Sequence record: MN850601.1
Length of the DNA: 64,000 bases
Source: Escherichia phage inny
Reading direction: 5' to 3' (one strand)
Made by a program: the position numbers and the translations under genes. The notes beneath the pieces were generated by a model. The model worked only from the letters and a program-made list of their open reading frames with translations, was not told the DNA's origin and searched no databases. Shown here one piece after another: positions 48,096 to 63,389 of this stretch. Position 1 is the stretch's first letter. Each line of letters begins with the position of its first letter.

Positions 48096-49832
48096 TTAGT
48101 TTACCAGTTTATTTATATCTGGTAAAAGATTTATTTCACCTAAAAAATCACCTTCACCTTCCTCTAACCAACTCTCATATGCTTGTGCATGATTATAGTT
48201 ACCATCAAAAGAATCTGCAACAAATTTTTCTACAGCTTTTCGAGATGTGCCAGTGCCAAATACACCAAGTTTAATACCATTGATCGGTAAAGTGGTGCTT
48301 GTTGGTACTTTCTCTGTTGCAACACGGTTAATATCTATAATCTCCTGTACGGTTGTGTTCCATTGTAAGCATTTAACACAACGGGTATGCGCTACATACA
48401 GTAGGTTTCGCTCTGCCTCTTCCAGTCCTATCCATTGACCAGTCTTTTTATCATAGTTGGAAGGAAAATCATTAGCAACAATAACCTGATCCCACTCCAA
48501 ACCTTTAGACTTGTGTGCTGTAGTCAGTGTGACTTTTGCTGTAGGAGAATTTCTATGCGTTCTAAGTGTATGTGCTATAGTGTTTGCCTTACCAGAAACT
48601 ACGATGTTTAACAAGCGTTTAGCATCTGGATCAGCCTCTGCACACTCAACAAATTCATTCCAGTCTGCGTAAGGTAATACAGTTTCATGTTTTACTTTCT
48701 CAATATCTCCTCTCCGAAGAGCATTAACACTATCTACCATAGAGATAAAATCCCTGGTATCTACGTTAATAATAATTTCTTCCCCATCTGCAATACGATC
48801 CATTGCCTCCATAAGCAAGGTTAAATTCTTGCGAAAGATGATAGTGTAAGGTTTTGTATAGTCTACAACATCTGATTTGTAGCTACCTACTACAGTATCA
48901 AAGCCTTTACCAACCAAAGGATGACGCAAAGGTTCTTTATCGCTTAAAATCATATTGGCAATGTTTGCCACTTTGGGGCCAAAACGGAAGCAAGCAGTTA
49001 ATGGAAGCTCTGCCCCATATGTAGAGGTTTCCTTCATCATATTTTGGCTTCCACGGAACTGGTAGATGCTCTGATATTCGTCACCCACCACTACTACTTG
49101 TTTTGCAGATTTAGCATTTCGCAGAATAGACAAGAATGCAGGGTTAACATCCTGAAATTCATCACCAAAAATAATATCATAACCAAGATCAGCACCAGAT
49201 AATTCAAACAATTTTACATAGGTATCATGCGTCATCAAAGTATCTGTATTAGGATCGATGCGCTCTCGCCACAATTGTTTTGCATACTTAACTACTTCTG
49301 TAATTAGTTTGTGTTCGTTAATACCTTTTCTTTTAATATCTGCAAGATGTACACTAGGAAAATGTTTACGGCTGATAAAAGGATCATCCGAAAATTCAAA
49401 CTTACCTACGGTTTGCTTGATCATTAAACCAATCATAGCACGAGTTAAAAGTGTTTTCCCTCGTTTATCAATAAGATTATTAATCTTAAATTTCTTTGCT
49501 ATCTCACTACCTGTACCTGCAACGTTAACATACTGTCCTTCTGGTCGTGACAGTTTTGCACGTAAACGATGATCCAGGAATTGATAGCAAATAGAATGCA
49601 ATGTACGGCATTCTACATTTAGTGGCATCTTACGTCGTGCTTCTTCTGCCATGCTTTTATTGAAAGCTAAGTAAAGAATGCGATCTTCTGTACTGTTAGC
49701 CAGCAAATAAAGTGTTGACGTTTTGCCTGATCCAGATTTAGCTTGGATAGTTAAAAAGCGATGGTCTGGAAAAGCCTCCTTAATAGCTGTTTGCTCTTCT
49801 GTTGGAGTGAAGCTCAACTCTTTCTTAGCCAT
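48096..49832 (-). CDS. UvrD/Rep-type SF1 DNA helicase (start at ATG with AGAGAGG RBS)
   Basis: Walker A QAKSGSGKTSTL and motif II IIFGDEFQD. Confidence 0.8.
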   Translation of the reverse strand: MAKKELSFTPTEEQTAIKEAFPDHRFLTIQAKSGSGKTSTLYLLANSTEDRILYLAFNKSMAEEARRKMPLNVECRTLHSICYQFLDHRLRAKLSRPEGQYVNVAGTGSEIAKKFKINNLIDKRGKTLLTRAMIGLMIKQTVGKFEFSDDPFISRKHFPSVHLADIKRKGINEHKLITEVVKYAKQLWRERIDPNTDTLMTHDTYVKLFELSGADLGYDIIFGDEFQDVNPAFLSILRNAKSAKQVVVVGDEYQSIYQFRGSQNMMKETSTYGAELPLTACFRFGPKVANIANMILSDKEPLRHPLVGKGFDTVVGSYKSDVVDYTKPYTIIFRKNLTLLMEAMDRIADGEEIIINVDTRDFISMVDSVNALRRGDIEKVKHETVLPYADWNEFVECAEADPDAKRLLNIVVSGKANTIAHTLRTHRNSPTAKVTLTTAHKSKGLEWDQVIVANDFPSNYDKKTGQWIGLEEAERNLLYVAHTRCVKCLQWNTTVQEIIDINRVATEKVPTSTTLPINGIKLGVFGTGTSRKAVEKFVADSFDGNYNHAQAYESWLEEGEGDFLGEINLLPDINKLVN

Positions 49833-60220: not shown

Positions 60221-61393
60221 ATGACAGCACCAAAATCATGGGAACAATATAAAGAAGAATTAACACCCCTTGCTAAAAATCGCAATATTCAAATCCGGGG
60301 TTATGTTGGTGAATGGAAAGGGAACAAGACTAAACTTAAGCTATCTTGCCCTAAACATGGAGAGTGGAACACCACGAACATTAATGATTTTAAGAAGGGA
60401 CGTGGTTGTCCTATCTGTTCTGGTAAGAAGCCGTTAACATGGGAAACAGAATTGCCGATCTTGGAAGAGATAGCACAGAAGAGGGGGTATCAGGTGTTAG
60501 GGTACGTGGGAGAATGGAAAGGGAATAAAACAAAACTTGATTTGTTGTGTCATTGTGGTAATAAATGGGATACTACAAGTATTAACAATTTTAAACGTGG
60601 TAGCGGTTGTCCACAATGTAAGAGGGAGAGACAAACAATGTCCGACGATCAACATATTGCAGATTTCTTTTCTACAGGGGAATTTAAGGAAGGCACTATC
60701 TTCACCAATACAGGGAAACGTAACAAGCGTGATGCAGTATGGATGGTTGAGTGTCCTGTTTGCTCCCATGATGAATATGTTCAAGCAGGTGTTTGTGATG
60801 GTAAATTTTACTCTGCAGGACATAACCTTAAACAAGGGTATATTCCGTGTCGTTGTGGGAACTATCAGTATACAGAAGACCAGATCACCTATAGGGTAAA
60901 AAAGGAAGTAGAAGGGAAAGGGTATGTCTGGGTAGATTGGATTACCAAACCCTCTTCTATAGGTAAGTTTAAATATCTTTGTCTTGTGCATGGTGAGCAG
61001 ATAGGGAGTGCTCGTAATTTATTAAGCCTCGGTCAAGGTTGTCCACAGTGTGCTGGTCATAATCAACAGCAATTATATATTAATATTGTTAAAGATAATG
61101 ATATTATAGTTGCTCTTAAGTTTGGTATATCTAAAGATAGCGATAGACGATTAAACGGTCAAAATAGCCGTAATCTGTTTTTTATGGAGCGTATTTGTTT
61201 ATATGATTTTAGCACAGTGAAACAATGTAGGGCTGCTGAAAGAGCTATAAAGAAAAAATTAAAAACTGGTATTTTAACGGCAAGAGAGTTGAAAGATGGT
61301 TATACAGAAACAGTAAGTGTTTCTGATTTGGAAAATCTTCAAAAAATTATTACACAATATGGTGGCAAATTAGTATACAGTAAGGAGATGTAA
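60221..61393 (+). CDS. zinc-ribbon repeat protein with C-terminal T5orf172/GIY-YIG-like region (tentative)
   Basis: Repeated module Y(V/L)GEWKGNKTKL..C..HG.W.TT.IN.FK.G.GCP.C three times (CPIC, CPQC, CPQC); C-terminus IVALKFGISKDSDRRL. Confidence 0.5.
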   Translation: MTAPKSWEQYKEELTPLAKNRNIQIRGYVGEWKGNKTKLKLSCPKHGEWNTTNINDFKKGRGCPICSGKKPLTWETELPILEEIAQKRGYQVLGYVGEWKGNKTKLDLLCHCGNKWDTTSINNFKRGSGCPQCKRERQTMSDDQHIADFFSTGEFKEGTIFTNTGKRNKRDAVWMVECPVCSHDEYVQAGVCDGKFYSAGHNLKQGYIPCRCGNYQYTEDQITYRVKKEVEGKGYVWVDWITKPSSIGKFKYLCLVHGEQIGSARNLLSLGQGCPQCAGHNQQQLYINIVKDNDIIVALKFGISKDSDRRLNGQNSRNLFFMERICLYDFSTVKQCRAAERAIKKKLKTGILTARELKDGYTETVSVSDLENLQKIITQYGGKLVYSKEM

Positions 61394-61945
61394 ATGCGGA
61401 TTACTGATAAGTATGTGTTCTTCTTCTCGGCAAAAGATGAATTTAGCAACTGGTATCTATCATCTTTTATTGAACCTTTAGCTCCCAAGTATAATAATTC
61501 TATTACAAGTTCTGTTGAATTTACTTGTGTGGAACAATATATGATGTGGAGAAAAGCATGTTTGTTTTATGATTACAACATTGCATCTTCTATTTTAACC
61601 GGAGATCTAAGATATACAGGAGAAAAAGAACAGGCATATTATAAGCGACTAGGTAGATTAGTTAAAGATTACGATGAAGCTACTTGGACTTCTTTACGGG
61701 AGAAGATTGTCAAGCGTGGTTTGTATCTTAAATACACACAAAATGAAGATCTCAAAAATAAACTTATCGCTTACGCAGATAAGGAGTTCGTAGAGGCAAG
61801 CCCTTATGATTCTATTTATGGTATCAAAATGGGAATGTGGGATCGTGATGTGGAAAATAAGGACTGTTGGAAAGGACAAAATCTTTTAGGAAAATGGCAT
61901 ACAGACCTTGCTGTTTATCTAAAAGCACAATCTGATATTTCCTGA
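61394..61945 (+). CDS. NADAR-domain protein (YbiA/DUF1768-like)
   Basis: 183 aa; FFFSAKDEFSNWY, EQYMMWRKA, LVKDYDEATW, EFVEASPYDSIYGIKMG and GQNLLGK are colinear with E. coli YbiA; TAAATG coupling. Confidence 0.8.
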   Translation: MRITDKYVFFFSAKDEFSNWYLSSFIEPLAPKYNNSITSSVEFTCVEQYMMWRKACLFYDYNIASSILTGDLRYTGEKEQAYYKRLGRLVKDYDEATWTSLREKIVKRGLYLKYTQNEDLKNKLIAYADKEFVEASPYDSIYGIKMGMWDRDVENKDCWKGQNLLGKWHTDLAVYLKAQSDIS

Positions 61946-62160
61946 TATTTTGAAAATTTTTATTTTTATAAAAAGGGGTGTGGGTTTCATGTACGGAAAT
62001 CCACCCTCTGAATAATATATCCAGAGTAAATATTATTCTGTACTCTGTTAATAAAGTATTTAATTTGTTTGTTTGACTATGGTATCTGATCTTTAAAAGA
62101 CATACTATCTCTTAACTACTACTTATAACAGAACAGTAAAATCATTTTTATAAAAAGTAC

Positions 62161-62365
62161 AAAATTATTTAAAGTTTTTACAGATTTTTGGGTACAAATT
62201 TTGAAAATGAAAAGTTCAAGTTTGGTCAAAATTATTTAAAGTTTTTGTACGTATTTCTGTCCAGATTTTGAAAATGAAAACTTCAATTTTTTAAAAATTC
62301 CCCAGTTTATTTAAAGTTTTTTTGCCTTTTTCCGTAGAAAAATCAAAAATGAAAAGTTCAATTTC
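62161..62365. repeat. three imperfect tandem direct repeats (~67-78 bp period)
   Basis: Each unit holds ATTATTTAAAGTTTTT and GAAAATGAAAAGTTCAA cores (units at about 62161, 62228, 62306); AT-rich, no ORF. Confidence 0.6.
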
Positions 62366-62385
62366 GTGTTTTTATAGGTGTGTTA

Positions 62386-62497
62386 ATGAGAATCATTTTC
62401 GTTTGTAAATGAGAATCATTATCATTTAACTATGTAAGTGATAATCATTCTCAGTAAGAGAATGAGAATCATTAGCAAATGAGAATTTTCTCATTTA
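62386..62497. promoter_or_regulatory. array of Fur-box-like palindromes (candidate iron-responsive operator cluster)
   Basis: AATGAGAATCATT at 62386, 62409 and 62462, GATAATCATTCTC at 62441 and AATGAGAA-TT-TTCTCATT at 62480; 62409..62425 matches the Fur box core at 15 of 16 positions. Confidence 0.5.
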
Positions 62498-62731
62498 GAG
62501 AATAACGCGCAGGGGCGGTGTTTGTCTCGCGCTCCCGTGTCCCCTCGCCATACAATAAGAATAGCATAACCAACAACAAAAGCAAGCGATTATTTTTATC
62601 TTTACATTTCTTTACAAATTTATTTTAGACGAGCTACCGGCGATCAACCTTCCAACCAGTGCCCCCTGGTATGTTAGCCCCGCCTTTACGCCGTGGGGGT
62701 GGCGTTTCCTCTTCTGTATGTAAAACAGTAT

Positions 62732-62750
62732 AAGCCCGATCCCTGGGCTT
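62732..62750. terminator. bidirectional hairpin terminator
   Basis: AAGCCC-GATCCCT-GGGCTT; T-rich on plus side (ATTATTTTTTGTTTT) and directly downstream of minus-strand ORF 62758..63024. Confidence 0.45.
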
Positions 62751-62757
62751 GTCAAGA

Positions 62758-63024
62758 TTATTTTTTGTTTTCTTGCCAGGATAGGACACCTAACCAAAAA
62801 TACATGTCGCCCCGCGCCCCTGGCGGGATCTTGCTTTCCCCGCCGCCACTACAAGCCCATAGATAACCATTAGCGAACGGATCAAAATGATCTATTTCTT
62901 CCACCTTATGATCGCCCAGGTTGAGAACGGTTTCAACCTTTAAGCCCGTTGCGCTTGCTACCTGGTGCACCGTGCCGCCTTGCCAGCCTAATGAGTGCAT
63001 GAGGTGTAGAGTAGTATTTGTCAT
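62758..63024 (-). CDS. hypothetical protein in GC-richer segment
   Basis: 88 aa; AAGG-type RBS; codon usage visibly GC-richer than the phage core. Confidence 0.4.
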   Translation of the reverse strand: MTNTTLHLMHSLGWQGGTVHQVASATGLKVETVLNLGDHKVEEIDHFDPFANGYLWACSGGGESKIPPGARGDMYFWLGVLSWQENKK

Positions 63025-63137
63025 GGTATCGCCCTTTCTTTGATGTGCGCCCTGGTTGGCGCGGTAGAAAGATAATAGCCCTTTCCTTTATAGATAGCAA
63101 GCAAAAAAAAGAAATGAAAAAAAGATTAAAAAAGGGG

Positions 63138-63166
63138 TTGACGTTCCTCACCTGGTAGCGTATTAT
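63138..63166 (+). promoter_or_regulatory. candidate sigma70 promoter
   Basis: TTGACG, 17-nt spacer, TATTAT, preceded by A-rich tract. Confidence 0.4.
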
Positions 63167-63293
63167 TCATCTTGTCGAGGGGGGCGAGGCACAACGACAA
63201 TAAACAAAAGGAGGGCGCAATGTAGGACGGGCAAAGGTGAGGATCTCCATAATCCACCGTCACAATAACATTACTTATAAAAGGTTGATAACG

Positions 63294-63389
63294 ATGATCA
63301 AGAAAGAAAACAGCTTGACGGTTGGAACGATTAACGCTATCATTCTTGCCGTTCCATTTTGGATTGTAGTTGCGGTTATTATTTTTTAA
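63294..63389 (+). CDS. small hydrophobic peptide (not in ORF track)
   Basis: 31-aa ORF MIKKENSLTVGTINAIILAVPFWIVVAVIIF with AAGG upstream. Confidence 0.3.
   Translation: MIKKENSLTVGTINAIILAVPFWIVVAVIIF

Follow-up and report, generated by a model that had tools for sequence, protein, structure and literature searches.

The usual mode of action of Fur is promoter occlusion. Fur clusters are typically marked by sites that overlap with a 6-bp shift, and the study describing this feature includes sites at the prophage genes nohA and nohB: that of nohA is shifted by purified Fur, the in vivo selection of a nohA fragment is cited, and the two sites are listed with no interpretation of their role (PMC2189734). 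In the literature, Fur boxes on phages are known only as switches of cargo genes such as sitABCD, where lambdoid phages carry a host Fur box on their genomes (PMC6969025). The T5 study assigns no function to the boxes of that phage and contains no mention of Fur; it reports that the first step of DNA transfer comprises 7.9% of the genome (10.1101/866236). No replication origin has been defined for the phage group analyzed here (rV5 paper, PMC3606486). Our full-text literature searches retrieved no paper that links Fur to the non-coding regions of T5, rV5-like, or phi92-like phages and no discussion of the cos-adjacent Fur site, and no transcript maps were found for these phage groups.

We analyzed a stretch of 64,000 nt from Escherichia phage inny (MN850601.1), referred to as the window, with all coordinates counted from its first nucleotide. 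In the region considered below, BLAST returned 97-99.5% identity to coliphages of the genus Justusliebigvirus, which places the window in that genus. These coliphages are phi92/phAPEC8-like lytic myoviruses of ~147 kb and belong to the subfamily Stephanstirmvirinae. The non-coding region of interest is bordered on the left by a NADAR-domain gene (61394-61945, plus strand) and on the right by an ORF of 88 amino acids (62758-63024, minus strand), and public records annotate nothing between 61946 and 62757 beyond "repeat_region". To the right of the 88-amino-acid ORF, small genes are located downstream of strong sigma70 promoters at 63138, 63398, and 63754, and these look like early genes.

An earlier note on this DNA had described a cluster of Fur-box-like repeats at 62386-62497, between tandem repeats and a GC-rich, ORF-poor segment. 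The cluster holds up, comprising the four best Fur matrix sites of the window and a fifth box, with direct repeats on its left (62144-62364) and a 48%-GC segment without ORFs on its right. All exact copies of the 13-mer AATGAGAATCATT in the 64 kb, three in number, fall within 77 bp (62385, 62408, and 62461), GATAATCATTCTC lies at 62440-62452, and the inverted repeat AATGAGAA-tt-TTCTCATT at 62478-62495. All of these repeats had been listed (13-mers at 62386, 62409, and 62462, the variant at 62441, and the inverted repeat at 62480), but with coordinates 1-2 bases too high. The 13-mer had also been called a palindrome; it does possess inverted-repeat arms of 5 bp, but these are separated by a 3-nt centre, and the actual repeating unit of the array is a 19-bp inverted repeat of 7-1-7 architecture.

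A Fur matrix was derived de novo, using a palindromic expectation-maximisation motif search, from 12 Fur-repressed intergenic regions of E. coli K-12 (fepA-fes, fepD-entS, fepB-entC, fhuA, fiu, tonB, exbB, fecI, cirA, fhuE, fhuF, and fur). The resulting motif was AATGATAATnATTATCATT, and the training sites scored between 11.1 and 22.2 bits. Scoring with a Fur weight matrix had been proposed in the earlier note, and it placed the four best sites of the 64-kb window within 62385-62479. These are box 1 (62385-62403, AATGAGAATCATTTTCGTT; 19.5 bits), box 2 (62408-62426, AATGAGAATCATTATCATT; 23.7 bits, the top site of the window), box 3 (62437-62455, AGTGATAATCATTCTCAGT; 15.1 bits, with an overlapping 10.3-bit site 6 bp upstream at 62431), and box 4 (62461-62479, AATGAGAATCATTAGCAAA; 19.4 bits, with an overlapping 10.0-bit site at 62455). 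Three sites of at least 16 bits are thus found inside ~100 bp, whereas 100 first-order Markov simulations predict 0.09 such sites per 64 kb. Box 5 (62478-62495) is the 18-bp perfect inverted repeat mentioned above and corresponds to the canonical 19-mer minus 1 nt. Its homologue in BME3 and in the relatives L065 and L147 is AATGAGAATTTTTCTCATT (18.9 bits), whereas one T is missing in the window and in L128, by which the 7-1-7 spacing is lost; this 1-nt deletion is all that separates box 5 of the window from the 19-bp, 7-1-7 form. A further Fur-type site is isolated and weaker (63326-63344, 14.6 bits); it overlaps the promoter-like TTGACG-17-TATCAT at 63315-63343, and its conservation is limited to Justusliebigvirus.

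The four boxes in canonical form are 19-bp inverted repeats of the type GATAATGATAATCATTATC, or TGATAATnATTATCA in the 7-1-7 notation, and match the former, classical Fur consensus at 16, 16, 15, and 16 of 19 positions. Their scores (15.1-23.7 bits) lie in the range of the 12 K-12 sites, and box 2, which agrees with the de novo consensus at 18 of 19 positions, exceeds all of these training operators. Overlapping sites 6 bp apart are present in the window (62431/62437 and 62455/62461) as well as in BME3 (53/59, 248/254, and 1159/1165). The stretch AATGAGAATCATTATC agrees with the Fur consensus core at 15 of 16 positions, as had been counted before, and the resemblance to the aerobactin promoter that had been pointed out is correct: the Shigella flexneri iucA promoter reads ttGATAATGAGAATCATTATTgac, with the sequence GATAATGAGAATCATTATT located upstream of an ORF of the IucA/IucC family, and over its 15-nt core, box 2 does not differ from the iucA operator. 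The footprinted iucA operator reached just 9.8-11.5 bits with the same matrix, so that the phage boxes appear "better than natural". The iucA-type 18-mer GATAATGAGAATCATTATT is spread over bacterial phyla, as would be expected of the site of a conserved host factor. Two features of chromosomal operators are absent or altered. No promoter matching at least 9 of 12 consensus positions overlaps the boxes, so that there is no overlap with the -35 and -10 elements of a Fur-regulated gene, and between neighbouring boxes we found only weak combinations resembling TTCTCA-17/18-GATAAT; in addition, no iron-related gene was found near the array among the ORFs of the window. Furthermore, the phage boxes favour the half-site GAGAAT (55% G), whereas chromosomal operators prefer GATAAT (18% G; Fisher p = 2e-4), and this bias could reflect either a different binding protein or selection against -10-like hexamers. 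Taken together, all sequence tests that we ran support the assignment of the array boxes as Fur boxes, and host Fur very probably binds them.

The phage's own proteins were considered as binders as well, and the earlier note had named the operator array of a phage repressor as an option. A phage regulator, or another host factor whose specificity overlaps the Fur consensus, might occupy the boxes, since repeated palindromes next to an early region typify phage operators, the boxes prefer another half-site than chromosomal Fur operators do, and the ORF at 62758-63024 contains a stretch that by eye resembles a helix-turn-helix (HTH). However, this ORF has no Pfam match and falls into a PHROG family of no known function, and it is missing beside the arrays of SSE121, BIS47, CR8, KaOmega, and T5-like phages; with this distribution it was rejected as the box-binding protein. 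Nor did we identify a candidate DNA-binding protein common to BME3 and the terminal-repeat loci of T5-like phages (~70 kb of sequence), the comparison of which gave one short, weak match inside an annotated phosphatase gene. A lineage-specific DNA-binding protein encoded nearby and co-occurring with the boxes, as in phage repressor-operator systems, was thus not found, and a phage homologue of Fur is also absent (best tblastn match, E = 7.3). T5 and more than 120 IMG/VR viral contigs contain the 19-mer of box 2 without a mismatch; the contigs form at least 40 groups unrelated at the DNA level and usually carry it in local arrays. The occurrence of near-identical boxes in unrelated phages, among them T5-like, lambda/DLP12, and uncultivated phages, the variation of the sites along the Fur matrix, and the lack of a phage protein that accompanies them all point to a host factor, which weakens the repressor option and makes a binder other than Fur distinctly unlikely.

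The array forms part of a larger non-coding module, the order of which is common to ~20 relatives from Justusliebigvirus, Phapecoctavirus, and the Vequintavirinae genera Seunavirus, Mydovirus, and Certrevirus, and which is therefore conserved across Stephanstirmvirinae and Vequintavirinae. The regions of these relatives were recovered by BLAST and pattern searches. From left to right, the module consists of three tandem repeats, between one and six Fur boxes, a GC hairpin, a duplicated TCTTTACA, an element of ~90 nt, and a minus-strand promoter (P1). The tandem direct repeats (62144-62364) measure 67-75 bp each, have a GC content of 21%, contain TTTTGAAAATGAAAAGTTCAA in every copy, and are iteron-like; three repeats of different sequence occupy the equivalent position in Phapecoctavirus and Vequintavirinae. 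The GC-rich hairpin (62507-62548) is located directly to the right of the array and keeps its position in the relatives with a different stem (GCGCAGGGG/CCCCTCGC here, AGCGGG/CCCGCT in Vequintavirinae). The ~90-nt GC-rich element (62628-62717, minus strand) shares 82-88% identity across genera and carries no annotation; it is non-coding, as judged from indels that are not multiples of 3, shows one compensatory pair (A-U to G-C), and is probably the 5' part of the P1 transcript. The AT-rich half of the module has 24.9% GC, compared with 37.5% for the whole window.

Box sequences vary from phage to phage, yet every one of them fits the Fur matrix. We scanned 2.5 kb on either side of the anchor in 21 relatives, which represent both subfamilies; sites scoring 13 bits or more were confined to the homologous array, save for a weaker site near +650 that three Justusliebigvirus sequences have. 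The number of sites per relative ranged from one to six. Measured from the conserved element, the proximal site is found at -189 to -196 in 19 of the 21 relatives; the exceptions are L148 (-235) and L154 (-929), the latter with a non-homologous upstream part. The boxes of Phapecoctavirus and Vequintavirinae are in an exact 29-bp register despite diverged spacers. In Justusliebigvirus, the spacing is irregular, with 23, 29, and 24 bp followed by ~17 bp to box 5. This irregularity, along with a proximal box that lacks the canonical spacing in the window, indicates that the exact geometry is not essential.

Two leftward promoters complete the module. P1 (62727-62755, minus strand) is a strong sigma70 promoter that reads TTGACA-17-TATACT and matches the consensus at 11 of 12 positions; its -35 and -10 elements hold their position in all 13 relatives, while the spacer sequence varies. 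The sigma70-like P2 (62589-62617, minus strand) reads TTGTAA-17-AATAAT and is built on the duplicated TCTTTACA. A minus-strand promoter between the conserved element and the hairpin was present in each of the 13 relatives scanned, at an offset that differs by subfamily. P1 and P2 point at the boxes and the repeats, across ~770 nt without an ORF.

This orientation speaks against the earlier proposal of a Fur-repressed non-coding RNA that runs rightward from about 62500 to a terminator at 62732. No plus-strand sigma70-like promoter overlaps the boxes in this phage, the conserved promoters are aimed leftward into the boxes, and the hairpin taken for the terminator (62732-62750) lies in the spacer of P1, between its -35 and -10 elements. 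A search of Rfam with 61800-63300, at E values up to 1, gave a chance miRNA match alone (E = 0.1; 23.7 bits versus a gathering score of 95), and neither strand of 62500-62722 folded better than shuffled sequence (z-scores of 0.31 and 0.84). Consensus folding of 15-17 relatives produced strand-specific structures; the transcribed strand is undecidable from them, as they barely vary and contain a single compensatory pair. In a related version of this proposal, a Fur-repressed small RNA covering 62500-62720 would be made from a rightward promoter that overlaps the last box. In five of 13 relatives, a weak TTGAAT-18-CAGAAT would place the last box between -35 and -10, and terminator-like hairpins are present on the plus strand at 62680-62711. 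However, this promoter is absent from the phage analyzed, where the -35 position reads GCAAAT or AGCAAA, and its -10-like hexamer is devoid of the essential A2 in several relatives. Considering also the results of Rfam and folding and the strongly conserved promoters of the opposite strand, we regard such a small RNA as highly improbable.

As a tentative explanation, which we prefer but hold with limited confidence, we propose that Fur gates the RNA polymerase of P1 and P2 on its way to the iteron-like repeats. The five boxes would be high-affinity operators for iron-bound host Fur, and a run of Fur dimers would coat ~115 bp of the control region at the inner edge of the early-gene block. The coated DNA, which is placed directly downstream of P1 (start at ~62720) and P2 (start at ~62582) and directly upstream of the repeats, would control host RNA polymerase in cis, as a barrier or a switch that depends on iron. 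Under iron-replete conditions, the coat would halt or slow P1 and P2 transcription ahead of the repeats, whereas Fur without iron would let it read through, with origin activation and an antisense or regulatory RNA as candidate outcomes. The resemblance of the boxes to Fur operators, their conserved and fixed position, the conserved promoters, and the limitation of strong sites to the array and the genome ends are observed, whereas Fur binding, the block of the polymerase, and the effect of read-through are inferred. Several observations argue against this barrier. The boxes are located ~90-340 bp downstream of the start points of P2 and P1, a position that departs from the usual Fur mode, and we know of no established case of roadblocking by Fur. 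Furthermore, repression of read-through at plentiful iron has no obvious benefit for the phage, the boxes have no iron-related gene in their vicinity, the GAGAAT preference differs from chromosomal operators, and the irregular box spacing in Justusliebigvirus speaks against a strict geometry.

The same module could instead be a replication origin, in which the repeats are iterons for a phage initiator, the 25%-GC stretch is the unwinding region, Fur serves as an architectural factor, and the leftward promoters provide activation or priming. IHF, Fis, and DnaA are host factors at origins elsewhere, and the T7 and T4 oriF origins make use of promoters. The architecture and its conservation fit this scheme, with iterons that differ by subfamily and boxes, hairpin, and promoters that are shared; the ~770 nt transcribed from P1 and P2 are non-coding and offer no ORF for expression, and the low GC content of the AT-rich half agrees with it. 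However, no DnaA (TTWTNCACA), IHF, or Chi motif was found in 61900-62800, there is no adjacent initiator gene, and the GC skew across the window tracks gene orientation and leaves the module unmarked, being uninformative in this respect. Fur is, to our knowledge, not an origin cofactor, and an origin would leave the boxes in terminal repeats and beside the lambda cos site, which are described below, unexplained. We regard an origin of this kind as unlikely.

The proposed barrier must also be seen in relation to Fur-type sites at genome ends. The window is the reverse of positions 10.6-74.7 kb of the complete genome of the relative BME3, the termini of which have been determined by PhageTerm (PMC12210895). 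The early-gene block separates the array from the BME3 genome end, which is ~12 kb (8%) away. Over the 147 kb of BME3, sites of at least 16 bits are limited to three places: the array, with five sites of 17.7-23.7 bits; the 342-bp terminal repeat, with sites of 22.8 and 16.4 bits (53 and 254 bp in); and subterminal non-coding DNA, with a site of 19.8 bits just inside the terminal repeat. The strong sites thus bracket the early-gene block. The 329-bp terminal repeat of Schickermooser, otherwise unrelated in sequence, contains sites of 18.6 and 22.8 bits at 75 and 254 bp, and further sites follow just inside. These genome-end sites have no evident promoter partner, which suggests a role more general than the gating of transcription.

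Fur-type sites in similar positions exist in other phages. BLAST aligns the array with the injection-stop region of the T5-like phage EC105, which contains AATGAGAATCATTATCATT (23.7 bits) and two further sites (20.3 and 19.1 bits), with a GC hairpin after them. These boxes coincide with repeats and palindromes of that region to which no function has been assigned, and the boxes of a T5 contig lie ~0.5-0.65 kb from its end, within the injection-stop region. In lambda, GATGATAATCATTATCACT (18.4 bits; 48450-48468) is located 34 bp from the right end, and its equivalent beside cos in DLP12 scored 21.9 bits; the matching site upstream of nohA is the one that purified Fur shifts (PMC2189734). The large terminase subunit was the only protein family common to the array neighbourhoods across five IMG/VR groups; three array-bearing IMG/VR groups without a GenBank match were typed by terminase genes. 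The neighbourhood of the large terminase gene is where cos and pac sites and genome ends lie. A tendency of the boxes toward contig ends is suggestive, with a naive p of 0.0014 that became 0.08 (6 of 16 groups) when related contigs were grouped.

Such a distribution is compatible with a Fur sponge, already named as an option in the earlier note, in which the sites have no local role in cis and ~12 very strong sites per genome (five in the array, two per terminal repeat, plus the subterminal ones) soak up Fur as the genome replicates. Iron uptake and RyhB would be de-repressed, providing iron for the phage ribonucleotide reductases. In support of this idea, an established assay (FURTA) relies on Fur boxes in multicopy to titrate Fur, and both class I and class III ribonucleotide reductases are encoded by BME3. 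In strength, the sites surpass natural operators; they are scattered through all larger non-coding stretches bordering the early region, their copy number ranges from one to six among relatives, and the GAGAAT bias would lower promoter activity with the Fur contacts kept. What speaks against a sponge, in our view a serious though rather unlikely rival, is the precision of placement: lambda has a single site exactly beside cos, the distance between proximal box and conserved element is fixed over two subfamilies, and the 29-bp register outlasts the divergence of the spacers. In addition, de-repression late in the lytic cycle may come too late to help.

Alternatively, Fur-coated boxes could act as speed bumps or stop signals for moving DNA during packaging or injection, marking the genome ends and the boundary of a putative first-entering segment of ~8%. 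The site 34 bp from the lambda right end, those in the terminal repeats of BME3 and Schickermooser and in the T5 injection-stop region, and boxes upstream of terminase genes in several uncultivated groups are in accordance with this idea, as is the distance of the array from the BME3 end, given the size of the first-step segment in T5. On the other hand, two-step entry has never been reported for this phage, the module is devoid of DnaA-box pairs like those in the T5 injection-stop region, a packaging motor is able to remove proteins from the DNA, and the contig-end tendency was only suggestive after grouping. We consider this possibility very doubtful. In its broadest form, Fur would be a structural cofactor for many tailed phages, and super-consensus arrays at genome ends and at the inner edge of the early region would be iron-dependent blocks that pause DNA movement or loop the early region, setting the packaging end or the entry stop; in phi92-like and rV5-like phages, the array would then correspond to the T5 injection stop. 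This broader scheme is a long shot.

New in the present analysis is the occurrence of near-perfect Fur boxes that are arrayed in the non-coding architecture of virulent phages, where they bracket the early genes and are present at the physical genome ends. Their recurrence in T5, lambda, and uncultivated phages suggests that many phages may recruit Fur for a purpose that has not been described. If Fur binds, the iron status of the host would be read or exploited by DNA sites alone, with no phage gene involved. If the parallel with T5 is true, it would bear on the 50-year-old puzzle of what stops T5 DNA at the injection stop signal. Iron is scarce in infected tissue, and a Fur-dependent step in phi92-like or rV5-like phages would thus be relevant to phage therapy.

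Among the closest known systems are the Fur clusters of E. coli (iucA/aerobactin P1, fhuF, fepA-fes, and fecI). They consist of the same 19-bp 7-1-7 repeat with several sites per locus, they share the 6-bp overlapping sites, and the scores of the array are equal or higher. In contrast to these clusters, the array has neither an iron gene nor a strong promoter overlapping the boxes, its sites are discrete, at intervals of 17-29 bp, and do not form an unbroken run of hexamers, it favours GAGAAT, and it is located in non-coding DNA of a virulent phage. The boxes of sitABCD are ordinary promoter operators of iron cargo on temperate phages, whereas the present phage is virulent and the boxes have no cargo gene. 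The sites of nohA and nohB, which are Nu1 homologues of the Qin and DLP12 prophages, and the lambda site resemble the array in being Fur-type boxes on phage DNA with no link to an iron gene; they are single and next to cos, whereas the array is internal.

With the lambda ori, the T7 primary origin, and T4 oriF, the module shares tandem repeats, an AT-rich stretch, and promoters that fire into non-coding DNA, but it differs from them in having no initiator gene and no DnaA or IHF site. T5, with its iss region (Repeat Region 3, with DRC repeats and the palindromes palE-palJ), has DnaA boxes in pairs, nine DRD repeats, and a terminal repeat of 10 kb, all of which the module lacks: the paired DnaA boxes that T5-type phages have in IRD'/IRC' within the long terminal repeat have no counterpart (no TTWTNCACA in 61900-62800), and the terminal repeat of the relatives, at only 342 or 329 bp, lies outside the window. 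The boxes at the early-gene edge, which in T5 are formed by DRC repeats and palindromes, are common to the T5-like EC105 and the array, in a comparable position ~8% from the genome end. The T5 iss region and the array have in common that both are large untranslated regions at the edge of the early-gene block.

A GC-rich non-coding element of approximately 90 nt (window 62628-62717) lies immediately downstream of P1, a leftward sigma70 promoter on the minus strand (62727-62755). Sequence comparison showed that this element is 82-88% identical between the two phage subfamilies that share the module, Vequintavirinae and Stephanstirmvirinae, and the position of P1 is also conserved among relatives. 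A search of Rfam returned no family for the element. A single compensatory pair, from A-U to G-C, was identified in it, and the length of an internal C-run (62661-62665) differs among relatives.

The window also contains three AT-rich tandem repeats of 67-75 bp each (62144-62364), which have the common core TTTTGAAAA. Three repeats are found at the same location in Vequintavirinae, but these are GATC-rich (CTCGATCG...CGTATT). Both sets look like iterons that co-evolve with a lineage-specific protein. Differences between relatives were also observed for a 390-aa ORF (60221-61393) composed of repeated CxxC...CPxC zinc-ribbon-like modules, the counterpart of which is annotated as 'endonuclease' in the Justusliebigvirus relative BME3. 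This ORF measures 1398 nt in alia and 978 nt in EmilieFrey, and the number of modules thus seems to vary.

In the BME3 record (PP239276), the first 788 bp recur at 146169-146956 and the first 342 bp recur again at 147030-147371. There are also Ns within the segment annotated as 'DTR-L' (146957-147298). These features suggest an artefact of assembly or annotation around the terminal repeat. Furthermore, four GenBank records labeled 'Campylobacter phage' (MG065639, MG065645, MG065656, and MG065689) share 97% identity with this E. coli phage over the region, and they probably carry a wrong host label or represent contaminants.

Apart from the array of Fur-type boxes, an isolated Fur-type site (63326-63344) scoring 14.6 bits with the matrix derived from E. 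coli K-12 promoters is located within a 50-aa ORF, where it overlaps the promoter-like sequence TTGACG-17-TATCAT (63315-63343). Its conservation is limited to Justusliebigvirus. In contigs of uncultivated viruses, the Fur-box array is separated from the terminase gene by an AT-hook-containing ORF of 152 aa (L111, 6201-6659), which may encode a small terminase subunit. A GP88-family protein adjoins the arrays in two contigs of one group (L097, 12064-12942; L083, 8286-9194).

Strong Fur-type palindromes were also detected in lambda (48450-48468) and in DLP12 of E. coli K-12 (2093-2111), in each case a short distance upstream of the cos end. We found no paper that discusses this cos-adjacent palindrome, which presumably lies near cosQ, the packaging-termination site.
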